Origin: Eledone cirrhosa
Lineage: Eukaryota
Length of the DNA: 64,000 bases
Assembly: GCA_964016885.1 (NCBI GenBank)
Contig: OZ024743.1
Location: 39,742,001 to 39,806,000 of the forward strand
Reading direction: 5' to 3'
Shown: positions 57,401 through 62,502 of the stretch, piece by piece
How positions within the stretch are numbered: position 1 is the first letter of the stretch
Layout: each line of letters begins with the position of its first letter
Position numbers and translations under genes: made by a program
Notes under the pieces: model-generated
Seen by the model: the letters and a program-made list of their open reading frames with translations, nothing else
Told to the model about the DNA's origin: nothing
Database searches by the model: none

Positions 57401-57501
57401 CCAACCGGAAATTTATAAATTTAATTTATAATAAATTAAAGTGAAACAACTGGTGCGTGTGTTTTATTATTGGCAACATGACCCTCCCAAAGCATAACAA
57501 T
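54420..57501 (+). mobile_element. Near full-length decayed Penelope-like retroelement ending in (TA)n
   Basis: The RT/EN pseudogene is followed by a 3' UTR ending GGCAACATGACCCTCCCAAAGCATAACAA directly at a (TA)n tract. The 5' boundary is approximate. Confidence 0.75.
54770..57120 (+). pseudogene. Penelope-like RT + GIY-YIG polyprotein disrupted by stops and frameshifts
   Basis: RT motifs: PALYGLRKDHK, PTRPVCG, SMDVVYLYPSID, EGAAIGVSIAGDIANLFM, RYVDD (YVDD at 55993-56004) and LPVLDTELW. A Cys-rich linker (CIDKKCIICK...C) follows, then VVYSI...VYMGETARSIGERINEH (about 56800-56900) and RQITEAINI. Confidence 0.92.
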
Positions 57502-58094
57502 ATATATATATATGTATATATATATATATATATATATATATATATAAATATATATATATATATATATATATATATATATATATATATATATATATATATA
57601 TATATATATATATATACATATATATATATATAAATTAGCGAGAATCGTATTTCGGCTATTGGAAATTAGCGAAAATTAACTTCCGAGATGTGTGGCAAGC
57701 GCTCAATATATTCTAAGGAACCAGAGCTACAACATACGTTAAAAGGCCAAACACACTGGGACGAGGGTTAAACCATTATCCGCACAGCCATAGTAACGAC
57801 CAAGTAATTCGGGTCAAACGTAATAAAAAGAAATATGATTGAAAAATGTGATTGAAAAAAAAAATATATATATATATATATATATATAAATTCGCTAACA
57901 ATGTTTCATCCATACCGTGGGGCAGGAATCCTGAGAGCGTAATGAATAACACTATAGTGCTGAATATAAGCTCTACCGAGCTTAGTCACTAGAAGAGTAG
58001 AGAAACCGTACAGGATAGCATGAGGGATTGGGTATGAGGAGGATGGAGAGAATGCGTACTGGGTTTATGAGCCAACATTATAACAAAATATAAT

Positions 58095-59098
58095 TGAGTT
58101 TACAACTCAAAATAGTCTTTTACAATGAAATAGCTCAAAGAAGGGAATCTTTCCGAGCCGTGTAATATAAAGGGATATATGAGAGGGATGAACACAGATA
58201 TAAGTATACATGTGTTCCAATAGCAAAGGACCAAGTTAGCTAGGTTGAAAAAATACTAATTTAAAACAATATAGTTTGCCTGATTCGATTTAAAGTAATA
58301 AATCAATAAAAATAACAAACCTATATCGGGCAATAGCCTTTGATACCCGGACAGACTAAAATCTGTTCGAAAGGATTATTAAGTGAAAGCCAGAATTCTT
58401 GTGCTCATCTACGGGTATCCAGGAAAATTCGTACCTTTCACCTCAAAGGATCTAAGCAGACTGAAAGATATGCTGCTACAAACGCACATGTGGCAGTGCC
58501 TAGCGCGTCTCATACTCATGCCGCTAAAAATAGCAGATGAGTTTATGAAACTAAGGTTAGCTCTACATACGGAGCCCAGAATATCATAGATTGAGTTGTA
58601 AACTCAAAATAGTATTTTACAATGAAATAGCTCAAAGAAGGGAATCTTACCGAGCCATGTAATATAATTGGATATATGAGAGGAATGAACAGAGATATAA
58701 GTATCCATGTGTTCCAATTGCAAATGATCAAGTTAGCCAGGTTGAAAACATACTAATTTAAAACAATATGGTTTGGCTGACTCGATTTAAACTAATAAAT
58801 CAATAAAAATAACAAACCTATATCGATCAATAGAGAAAGGTACGAATTGTCCTGGATACCCGCAGATGAACACAGGAATTCTTGCTTTCACTTAATAATT
58901 CTTGCGGAACAGATTTTAGTCTGTCCGGGTATCAAAGACTATTACCCGATATAGGTTTGTTATGTTTATTGATTTATTACTTTAAATCGAGTCAGGCAAA
59001 ACATTGTTTTAAATTAATATTTTTTCAACCTAGCTCACTTGGACATTTGCAATTGGAACACATATATCTGTGTTCATCCCACTGATATATCCAATTAT
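58095..59098. mobile_element. Partial tandem (~495-bp period) plus inverted copy, ending at a TA tract
   Basis: 58097-58330 is repeated at 58592-58825. 58835-59098 is the reverse complement of about 58165-58440. Confidence 0.75.
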
Positions 59099-59701
59099 AT
59101 ATATATATATATATATTTAATAATTAACTAATTAATTTAATTAGACACTTCTGTAGATTGGTTAATTATTTTCGTTTGTTTAATAACATCTGGTTGAGAG
59201 CTTTTATTCGGAATGTTTGAGCGGAAAATTATAATATTTCCCTTGTTAACACTATGAATTTACCCTTGTAAATAACTCGGGGGAACTAAGTATTCGTAGG
59301 TTGCCTTCTGTAGCGGTCGCATTTAGTTTGTTCACACCAGTTTGAGGCAGACCGGAATCCCTGTTGATTAAATGAATCCTCTGTTCGATTATGGAATACC
59401 ACAAGCTTGCGTGTTACGTAAGTTGGATAAATGATTTCGGATTTCATAGAAACACTTCAGACGTATATCGTTTGATTTGTCCAGGTCTGTATTGTAACCT
59501 GTTAGTTATTTCGTCACTTTGCTATTGTATGGTTGGGTTTGCCTACCGCAAAGTTCAATTTGTCAAGCTATTTAAACGTATGTTATTAATCTAAGGACGT
59601 ACCCTTATTGAGTGATTTGCTAACTCATCCCTACTGTAGGCCGGTTTTGCGTGGCCACAGACAAAGCTTCGATTTTACTAAGCTTCCACTTATATATATA
59701 T

Positions 59702-59880
59702 AACGAAGGAAGTGTGGTAAGGAACCAGATGGACCATCACCCACCAGAGTACTCAATACTTAGGGTAATAGGAAAATGTTTAACCCCGACGGCAGAGATC
59801 AATCCGTTTCGACTGCTATTTCTGAGTCCAGAAATAGCCGTCGAAACGGCTTGAGCTCTGCCGTCGGGTTAAACATTTTC
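59702..59880. mobile_element. Second copy of the 6266 palindrome family, opposite orientation
   Basis: It shares CCGTCGAAACGGCTTGAGCTC and the tail AACGAAGGAAGTGTGGTAAGGAACCAG...GAGTACTCAATACTT, and is flanked by TA tracts. Confidence 0.8.
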
Positions 59881-60137
59881 ATATATATATATATATATAT
59901 ATATATATATATATATATATATATATTTATATATATAAATCGAGCCCTATTCCGATTTAGTCTTCACATTTATTAATATTACTATATATATATATATATA
60001 TCAAAAGCGTGAACCTAATAAACTCATATTTGTACTGCCTCTTTGTGTTTGTTCCTGTCTATGATTTAACTATATATATATATATATATATATATATATA
60101 TATATATATATATATATATATATATATATATATATAT

Positions 60138-60490
60138 AAACGGGAAAAATGTAACGAAATTTCATTTCCCACTTTTAGTACGGCTGTTACTTAAATATAA
60201 GTATGTACACGTACATAGATATACAGACGTACAGTAGTATGTATATATATATATACATACATGCACACATATATATATGTACGTATGGATTCACCGAACA
60301 TTTATTATAACGTTCGGTGTGTTTGTAAACAAACATCCCGTATAAAGCCGTAGTGTCCAGCAACCATCGATGGTCGTTTGTTCAACACTGACAAAGGATC
60401 GCTGTACTAGTTTCAAGCTTATTAGCTATCGTCAGCAACGTATACCTTCCGGCCAGATTGTTGAACGTATATACTTACCTTATGCATACG
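60138..60490 (-). mobile_element. Single partial copy of the same repeat family
   Basis: It matches 6561-6750 and the reverse complement of 6820-7020, and is flanked by TA tracts. Confidence 0.75.
60400..60440 (-). ncRNA. Minimal type I hammerhead ribozyme
   Basis: Minus strand reads CGTTG-CTGACGA-TAGCT AATA AGCTT-GAAA-CTAG-TA-CAGCG. Stem I is fully paired, including one G-U. Confidence 0.78.
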
Positions 60491-61564
60491 TGTACATACT
60501 TATATTTATATAAATATACTAATATATATTTATATATATATATATATATATATATATACATATATATATATATATATATATATATATATATATATATATA
60601 TATATATATAGATATATATATATATATATATATATGTATATATATATACAAAACATGAGACAGATGATTATATTTGTGTGATATGCCACTCATACACTTA
60701 TCTGTACCTATACAATTACACGTATGGAGCTACAAATCGTATATATATCACGATGAATTTAACGAATAAACTACACGGATTTATGAAGGACTTAATTAAT
60801 TGTAGCTAGTAGTGATTGGAAATACAAAGATTTAGATACTGTTGTTGATATGGAAAATTGTAACGTAGCTTCTAGTGTAATAAGCTAATTTAGTAGAATG
60901 GCATTGCAAAATCAATTTTATGATATAAAGCTACGATTACGTTGGAGTAAACAATGTGTTTGATATTATAAACAAATATACATAAGTGTGTGCGTATATA
61001 TATATATATTTATATATATATATATATATATATATATATATATTTATATATATATATATATATATTTATATATATATATGCACAAATACATATGCATATA
61101 CATACACATATACCAATACCTATTTATATATATATATGTATATATATATAAGTATATATATATATCTATATATATATATGTATATATATATAAAATATAT
61201 ACATATATAAATGTATATATATATATATATGTATATATATATATATATATGTATATATATATATATATATATATACATATATATATACATATATATATAA
61301 GCATATATTTATAATATATACATATATATATATATATATATATATACATATAATATATATATATATATATATATATATATATATATATATATATATATAT
61401 ATATATATATATATATATATATATATATATATATATATATACATATATATATATATATAATATATATATAAATATATAATATATATATATATATGCACAC
61501 ATACATATGCATATACTTACACATATACCAATATATATATATATATATATATATATATATATAT

Positions 61565-62263
61565 ATACGATATTAACAAATGGAAACTATATTTATAAAA
61601 CCATATTTATTTTATTATACACATTTCAAGGATACCACGTTAAATTATGGTATGCTTTCATCAGACAAAATACAATATATATCAGTTTTATAAATAAATA
61701 TTGACATACCCTTAAAAAATGCAACCATTACAGTTGGAAGCTCCAGGATAGTGGAGTTGTTTAGTTATATTAGTATTGGATAAGTCGTTGGGTTACAGAG
61801 AAGGAAAAAGTCGGAGAGGGAGAAAAAGATAGAAAGAAGGAAAAAAGAAAAAAGAGAGACACGTTAGAGAGATACCAAAATAACAGATAGAGAGAAAAAA
61901 CAGAGAGAAAAAAACATCTCCCTCTCCGTCTTTTTCCTTCTCTGTAACCCAACGACTTATCCAATACTAATATAACTAAACAACTCCACTATCCTGGAGC
62001 TTCCAACTGTAATGGTTGCATTTTTTAAGGGTATGTCAATATTTATTTATAAAACTGATATATATTGTATTTTGTCTGATGAAAGCATACCATAATTTAA
62101 CGTGTTATCCTTGAAATATGTATAATGAAATAAATATGGTTTTATAAATATAGTTTCCATTTGTTAATATCGTATGTTTACTCCAAATACTTGTTGAGTG
62201 CTTTATATCAGATATAAAAATATTTGCTTATTGTATCCCAACAATTTAAATAGAACTTTTGCA
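61565..62263. mobile_element. Fold-back hammerhead element related to 51792 (arms about 61565-61823 / 61917-62175, purine-rich spacer, tail to about 62263)
   Basis: The ~260-bp arms are nearly identical. Both carry TATTTTGT-CTGATGA-AAGCATACCA...TATCCTT-GAAA...TA-AT(A/G)AAATA (plus-strand core 62076-62124, minus-strand span about 61608-61672). The tail reads ACTCCAAATACTTGTTGAGTGCTT. Confidence 0.85.
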
Positions 62264-62270
62264 TATATAT

Positions 62271-62502
62271 ATATTGTTATACTCTGGGAGGGTCATGTTG
62301 CCAATAAGAAAGACATGCACTAGCTGCTTTCACTCCAATTTATATTAAATTAAATTTATAAATTTTATTTATAACAAATTGGAGTGAAGCACTGGTGCGT
62401 GTGTTTCTTATTGGCAACATGACCCTCCCAAAGTATAACAATATCGGTTTCAACACACGTTTTCAGATAAAGAATCTTGCTAAACAAATTGAGAAACAGA
62501 AT
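62271..62502. mobile_element. Fold-back palindrome (62271-62444) of the Penelope 3' terminus plus tail
   Basis: The right arm CTGGTGCGTGTGTTT...TTGGCAACATGACCCTCCCAAAGTATAACAATA matches 57450-57502. A further related end lies at about 2820-2850 on the minus strand. Confidence 0.85.

Follow-up and report, generated by a model that had tools for sequence, protein, structure and literature searches.

Head-to-head Penelope-like insertions in Eledone cirrhosa mostly carry a single tail and are consistent with priming from both target ends

Introduction

Penelope-like elements (PLEs) that encode an endonuclease (EN+ PLEs) have been described as partial tandems forming pseudo-long terminal repeats (pLTRs), accompanied by a head-to-head inverted copy and by a tail that often lies at one end. 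An open reading frame (ORF) start in the pLTR that is extended by the tail, a hammerhead motif, (TA)n targets and junction palindromes belong to the same description (PMC8557442, PMC3846280). How the inverted pLTR and the tail form is still called open in PMC8557442 and PMC11167929. Here we describe a family with this organization, family A, in a 64,000-nucleotide (nt) stretch of the genome of Eledone cirrhosa (GCA_964016885.1, contig OZ024743.1, positions 39,742,001 to 39,806,000). This whole stretch is called the window, and positions are given within it. A small palindrome at 62271-62504 and a decayed element at 54465-57503 are the starting points of the analysis. The shape of such insertions is already published (PMC8557442, PMC3846280, PMC11167929), and what is added here is counts. 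Tails measure 39-87 nt in the families of the window, compared with 30-40 nt in the EN+ PLEs described in PMC8557442 and PMC3846280, and where these papers discuss mechanism they invoke self-priming or endonuclease resolution, whereas the present counts point to priming from both ends of the target.

Two other systems bear on this reading. The protein of the Anolis Poseidon element PAc has been studied in vitro, where two internal start sites of reverse transcription bound the tail and both strands of an AT-rich target are cut and extended (PMC11167929). PAc belongs to a different clade, its start sites are reported to lack homology to the target, whereas TAT or ATAT is found at both sites here, and the main text of PMC11167929 leaves the two sites unassigned to the strands of any one insertion. 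In LINE-1 twin priming, as in the proposal made below, both target ends prime on one RNA, the complementary DNAs (cDNAs) are annealed by short complementarity, and the junction shows microhomology (PMC2912911). The second LINE-1 primer lies far upstream and yields non-overlapping inverted pieces; the two sites here are fixed and 39-87 nt apart, so the same stretch would be copied twice. A search of the literature found no two-ended priming model for PLEs, and older papers, supplements or figures may hold such proposals.

Results and discussion

The palindrome and the end of the neighbouring element were compared in two ways. Self-BLAST of the masked window aligned positions 57409-57499 of the element (hereafter the parent) with 62352-62440 on the plus strand (90%, E = 3e-26) and with 62275-62365 on the minus strand (86%, E = 2e-21), and global alignment to the parent end gave 85/94 identities for the right arm and 82/97 for the left. 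Both analyses agree with the claim of an earlier note on this DNA that the last ~90 nt of a reverse transcriptase (RT)/GIY-YIG element recur as a palindrome. The left arm (62271-62358, minus strand) is an inverted, tail-less pLTR end that is flush with (TA)n, and the right arm (62359-62444, plus strand) is the same end with the family ATG at 62419 and a first AATAT at 62440-62444. At the centre of the palindrome lies the self-complementary 14-mer AAATTTATAAATTT (62352-62365), which the parent also carries at 57409-57422. The parent and the left arm both read AATAT and then (TA)n, the flank of the tail-less parent end covering 57500-57632. The right arm alone runs on for 60 nt to a second AATAT before its own (TA)n flank (62501-62523), in line with the claim that a tail of ~60 bp is missing from the parent's end. 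This tail (62445-62504, plus strand) is the following part of the element, the start of its ORF.

The parent (plus strand) consists of RT pieces, a GIY-YIG domain, a 3' pLTR and the tail-less end. It had been taken for an autonomous-type element and is not intact: it is broken by several stops and frameshifts and lacks ~1 kb of 5' sequence present in other copies. Because the palindrome differs from the parent at subfamily-type sites, it need not derive from this neighbour. The stretch 62271-62504 belongs with 54465-57503 to one Neptune-type PLE family and represents a head-to-head insertion with a truncated 5' side, as the earlier note had supposed in reading it as a truncated, inverted PLE insertion.

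Across the genome, an exact 32-nt pattern of the family A pLTR end occurs 25,459 times and its reversed control 0 times. A genome search with the tail gave 40 scored matches, and in 29 of the 30 fetched loci the tail follows the same sense pLTR end; at least 10 of these loci extend upstream as far as endonuclease sequence. Of 40 loci retrieved from around the 5' part of the element, 10 show a direct upstream pLTR whose tail runs into the ORF leader, and in one of them (L092) an open frame begins inside the pLTR end and passes through the tail. Both family A break points read AATATCG, with the break falling after AATAT. Since the tail follows the pLTR end and continues into the leader in tandem copies, it belongs to the normal sequence of the element and begins the next unit, and the suggestion that tails equal the leader downstream of an upstream pLTR holds. 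The same has been described for Adineta Pen2a (PMC3846280) and Anolis PAc (PMC11167929).

Judged by its sequence, family A can be classed as an EN+ PLE, with an RT followed by a C-terminal GIY-YIG domain, partial tandems with a pLTR, and an inverted truncated copy with an optional tail. Matches to GIY-YIG (PF01541) were below the gathering score both in the window (E = 0.0018) and in a second locus, L270 (E = 0.00032). Pfam gave no RT match in family A, and the RT motifs YVDD and DKSG were read by eye. The linker CX2-5CxxC before GIY-YIG and the CCHH motif, which define Neptune in PMC8557442, were seen by eye in family A (L270) and in a second family, D (L307/L314); we use the label 'Neptune-type' for A and D because Nematis shares the linker and the placement is by motif. 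The family A pLTR appears to carry a minimal hammerhead motif of the kind described in PMC4209133. Our own pattern scan found it ~140 nt upstream of the end, with 79 distinct copies of the commonest form. In the parent the motif (57321-57363, plus strand, read by eye) is damaged, and the intact form is found in other copies. Rfam reported no hammerhead on two full-length loci, where it gave just sub-threshold matches on simple repeats.

We next consider how often one insertion carries one tail. For loci L001-L170, 69 distinct insertions with two ends were resolved by script; 64 of them were clearly one-tailed and three more (L062, L070, L153) were one-tailed by eye. L170 was left out of this count as a larger inverted duplication. 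It was found that L170 (G000:C1:106784900-106791200) runs from PLE arms into identical flanking host sequence. Of the 67 one-tailed insertions, 18 were found through the tail itself and 49 through tail-blind queries. A tail-blind sample was also drawn from the first 100 of the 25,459 exact ends, and all 28 head-to-head pairs within it were fetched: 26 had one tail (24 by script, 2 by eye), one was two-tailed, one was unresolved and none was tail-less. One tail in 26 of 27 resolved pairs departs from a 50:50 expectation with P = 2e-7. In a second palindrome family, B, traced through fetched loci and protein search, 18 pairs were chosen from protein matches, and all 17 that could be resolved were one-tailed. 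The one-tail pattern, counted here at 26/27 (A) and 17/17 (B), is close to strict. (TA)n tracts of at least 8 nt flank both sides in 90 of 95 insertions.

These numbers bear on the possibility that the pairs are two independent insertions that met head to head in one (TA)n, or later rearrangements of older copies. PLE ends do pile up in the same (TA)n tracts, and L170 is, as noted, a larger inverted duplication. Independent insertions would, however, yield about half one-tail pairs; no (TA)n separates the fused arms, and arms of one insertion are more alike than arms of other insertions. We regard this explanation as highly improbable.

The lengths of the arms separate the remaining explanations. 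Of the 67 family A insertions (two of them with complex layouts), 26 have the longer arm on the tailed side and 28 on the tail-less side, and in 13 the two arms are within 20 nt of each other; of the 17 in family B, 10 have a tailed arm that extends further upstream, 6 a tail-less arm that does so, and one is equal. Arms range from ~34 nt to >4 kb and extend into RT/GIY-YIG coding sequence. In a self-priming fold-back, a tail-primed cDNA (or an antisense template) would fold at a palindrome, copy to the first AATAT and anneal to the (TA)n end on the opposite side. The Discussion of PMC3846280 reads junction palindromes in this way, and the window copy fits such a route, as do the variants shared between arms. 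Inner arm ends sit exactly on the 14-mer in 16 of 186 cases, making it a junction hot spot and the perfect palindrome of the window a recurring product, and one family B junction lies at a 15-nt palindrome. Under fold-back, however, the tail-less arm could never extend further upstream than the tailed one, which the 28/67 and 6/17 cases contradict, and most junctions in both families join distant, unrelated positions. A single folding cDNA can neither lengthen the tail-less arm nor add a tail that was never copied, so two reverse transcription events appear to be required wherever the tail-less arm exceeds the tailed one. As a general route, single-cDNA fold-back is ruled out by the counts (the earlier note had spoken of 'fold-back elements'); it is quite improbable as the main explanation and may account for at most a symmetric minority, such as the window copy.

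Within window 57239-57272, a separate cluster of 15/186 inner arm ends lies in 57239-57263, just upstream of a AAGATGGCG motif that we take to resemble a YY1 site. This cluster possibly marks an RNA start in the pLTR.

The two arms of one insertion also share their source variants. At subfamily sites, family A arms were discordant 31 times against 165 expected (13 sites, 44 insertions), and family B arms once against 113 expected (22 sites, 14 simple insertions of the 17). In the family B comparisons, source variants were common to both arms in 274 of 275. This bears on a second form of two-ended priming, in which a protein dimer would carry two RNA molecules and the asymmetry would come from the geometry of the complex or from the endonuclease trimming one arm at its own AATAT. 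According to PMC11167929, the Anolis protein was predicted to dimerize and also cleaves the ORF-pLTR junction of its own element, and Craig et al. attribute the tail to endonuclease-mediated resolution (PMC8557442). Strand displacement would be unnecessary, and rare two-tailed insertions do occur. Against this, source-type variants separate the arms in only 1 of 275 comparisons within a young family that has several source types, the asymmetry needs a further cause, and several insertions of a tandem family, C, still show one tailed and one tail-less end (seen by eye and uncounted). We consider this second form unlikely.

Junctions between arms were compared with random joins. Overlaps of at least 3 nt occur in 17/65 family A junctions and in 93/1499 random joins, and overlaps of at least 2 nt in 12/17 family B junctions, a count taken without a control. 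Several junctions (L002, L094, L369, L370 and L381) contain short templated hairpins or repeats, in L381 including a piece of the tail. Such hairpins and repeats are typical of microhomology-mediated joining.

TAT or ATAT, in keeping with the (TA)n flanks, stands at each of the two break points in families A, B, D and E. From these sequence patterns we propose that both (TA)n target ends probably primed on a single RNA, each at one of two AATAT sites separated by 60 nt, and that the copies were probably joined, in the window insertion, at the 14-mer. The GIY-YIG domain would nick both strands of (TA)n; of the two 3'-OH ends, one would use ATAT to pair at the pLTR-end site, and the other would pair at the tail-end site. 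Both would then copy the RNA toward its 5' end, with the tail-primed enzyme displacing the first cDNA. The two same-sense cDNAs would stop independently and be joined by a short inverted microhomology, often with a few bases added, before fill-in. The window copy would be the symmetric case, in which both cDNAs stopped at the 14-mer. Of these steps, we infer the displacement and the assignment of sites to strands. The Anolis protein in vitro likewise cuts and extends both strands, with two start sites bounding the tail (PMC11167929). The folded RNA of pLTR, tail and leader was no more stable than shuffles (z = -1.27), and no structure that brings the two start sites together is therefore claimed. 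A more tentative extension, to which we give slightly less than even weight, is that PLEs with an endonuclease generally integrate by such nested twin priming, with two fixed sites on one RNA engaged through TAT/ATAT and an outer enzyme displacing the inner cDNA.

Several observations weigh against priming from both ends on one RNA. Insertions without exactly one tail exist: L154 is a tail-less pair (1 of 69), L130 is probably two-tailed (missed by the script and found by hand), L262 is the two-tailed pair of the tail-blind sample, two family E insertions (L264, L265), picked from 100 listed tail ends, are two-tailed, and 2 of 23 short family B pairs are complex two-tailed cases. Many ends are outside pairs, with 50 ends in the L001-L170 set lacking a partner arm and 44 of the first 100 exact ends falling outside exact pairs. 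Extra or unassigned bases were found at 31/65 family A junctions (null 34%), and a search for empty target sites gave 0 true sites among 85 flank pairs (3 spurious matches). Gene conversion, or a single active source locus per cell, could likewise make the arms agree, the single symmetric copy of the window is equally compatible with fold-back, and a Poseidon element is reported to prime without homology between RNA and target (PMC11167929).

Other palindrome families in the window

In 12 of the 16 inverted repeats of the window, one arm directly abuts (TA)n, and 39-145 nt separate the other arm from it. Families B, D and E, like A, are ends of PLE ORFs, as the earlier note had proposed, the ORFs being found upstream. 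Its further proposal that all palindrome families are Neptune-like stands for A and D, which are Neptune-type, and fails for B and E, which carry motifs of the Hydra clade. Likewise, each palindrome family marks a different PLE in the case of A, B, D and E; for C no ORF link was found among loci biased against finding one, for family X no ORF was found upstream of 4 other copies, and the inverted repeat at 31388-32114 (264 bp, with a 199-nt spacer and without TA flanks) is single-copy.

Family B (6266-6466, plus strand; also 59703-59880 and 63179-63325) is a palindrome with an 80-nt tail at the end of a young Hydra-type PLE. In 30/30 loci it lies ~1.2 kb downstream of a GIY-YIG ORF. The ORF shows the motifs by which PMC8557442 defines the Hydra clade (DKT, a CxCX5C linker and CxxC plus CxH, without CCHH), read by eye in L278, L288 and L292. 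Hydra clade PLEs in that paper also use (TA)n targets; family B is young here, and its placement is by motif only. It forms tandem arrays of 3,531-bp units that are 99%+ identical, and many copies have open frames of 784 amino acids. Such copies include L382 (G000:C1:437201000-437210900), and arms are up to 99.9% identical to one unit. These features make family B a candidate active element. A hammerhead was looked for in family B and none is claimed.

Family E (61568-62266, plus strand; related copy 51796-52222) is a palindrome with an 87-nt tail and hammerhead motifs. It is the pLTR of a second Hydra-type ORF, seen in two neighbouring copies, with the Hydra motifs read by eye in L269/L270 and an N-terminal motif that reads RWR, compared with RWK in the Hydra clade. 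The 30 best DNA matches of family E had no shared upstream sequence beyond ~340 nt, and its tandem junctions were found by a tail pattern. Identical family E junctions recur every ~100-170 kb on C20 (G000:C20:3.5-5.3 Mb) and less regularly on C27 (13-15.4 Mb), which suggests large tandem segmental arrays.

Family D (1208-2488; also 51355-51751) consists of two head-to-head arms, bears a 39-nt tail and forms the end of a Neptune-type ORF; a Neptune-type endonuclease lies upstream in 7/30 loci. Family X (2820-3060, minus strand), a tail-less end with a hammerhead motif at 3029, is the third related end that the earlier note had placed at about 2820. It shares the last ~29 nt with family A and is another, related family with its own tail. 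No ORF was found upstream of 4 other copies. Family G (9685-10100, plus strand) is a palindrome with a 90-nt spacer that contains hammerhead motifs. The window contains six strict hammerhead matches, all within families C, E and G, whereas shuffles gave 0.1.

Family C (6561-7575, plus strand; also 45213-46568 and 60139-60488) is a gene-less tandem unit of ~429 bp with a hammerhead motif and PLE-type ends. There are 3,295 unit-to-unit junctions, and 30/30 fetched junction loci continue into another unit, in a sample biased against finding an ORF. Neither an ORF link nor an autonomous partner was found; protein matches lie near 6 loci without demonstrated joining, in the same biased sample. Its gene-less tandem units and type I hammerhead would make it a putative member of the non-LTR retrozymes, which are PLE-related too and, according to bioRxiv 10.64898/2026.07.22.740005, consist of tandemly repeated units that span a few hundred bp, lack genes and each carry a type I hammerhead motif. 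Unlike those described there, family C also forms head-to-head insertions with PLE-type ends.

The short palindromes could alternatively be miniature inverted-repeat transposable elements (MITEs), or copies of one amplified non-autonomous master moving as a fixed unit. Their high copy number, inverted ends and TA flanks are of this kind, short family B copies cluster round one centre, and family C is a real non-autonomous unit. The ends are asymmetric, however, the arms vary from ~34 nt to >4 kb and run into RT/GIY-YIG coding sequence, and subfamily-type sites vary among six copies that have the 14-mer at their centre (by eye), pointing to separate origins. Fixed ends of the MITE type, which the earlier note had named as evidence against a PLE origin, were found in none of the families tested. 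For A, B, D and E the variable arms, the asymmetric tail and the continuity with RT and endonuclease sequence largely refute this explanation, and we find it the least credible of those considered. Many (TA)n-flanked palindromes in this genome that resemble MITEs or hairpin RNAs are better annotated as PLE ends.

Other repeats in the window include a GIY-YIG fragment with the 3' region of another PLE family (4547-6075, minus strand), within which a possible variant hammerhead was noticed by eye near 4740-4770, and a LINE-type RT remnant with a weak PF00078 match (52766-53730, minus strand). An abundant short repeat with a tRNA-like box, recognized by eye (12863-13187, 22512-22777, 28930-29095, 33884-34085, 40472-41378 and others), is probably a short interspersed element (SINE).

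Conclusions

The locus itself is ordinary and its structure is known; the counts narrow an open mechanistic question. They tie the two start sites observed in vitro to the two ends of one insertion and yield a sharp prediction for the existing in vitro assay. If nested twin priming is true, a single event would account for the inverted pLTR, the tail on one side, the junction palindromes and the preference for (TA)n in both the Neptune-type and the Hydra-type clades, and the young, intact Hydra-type family of the Eledone cirrhosa genome would provide a system in which to test it.

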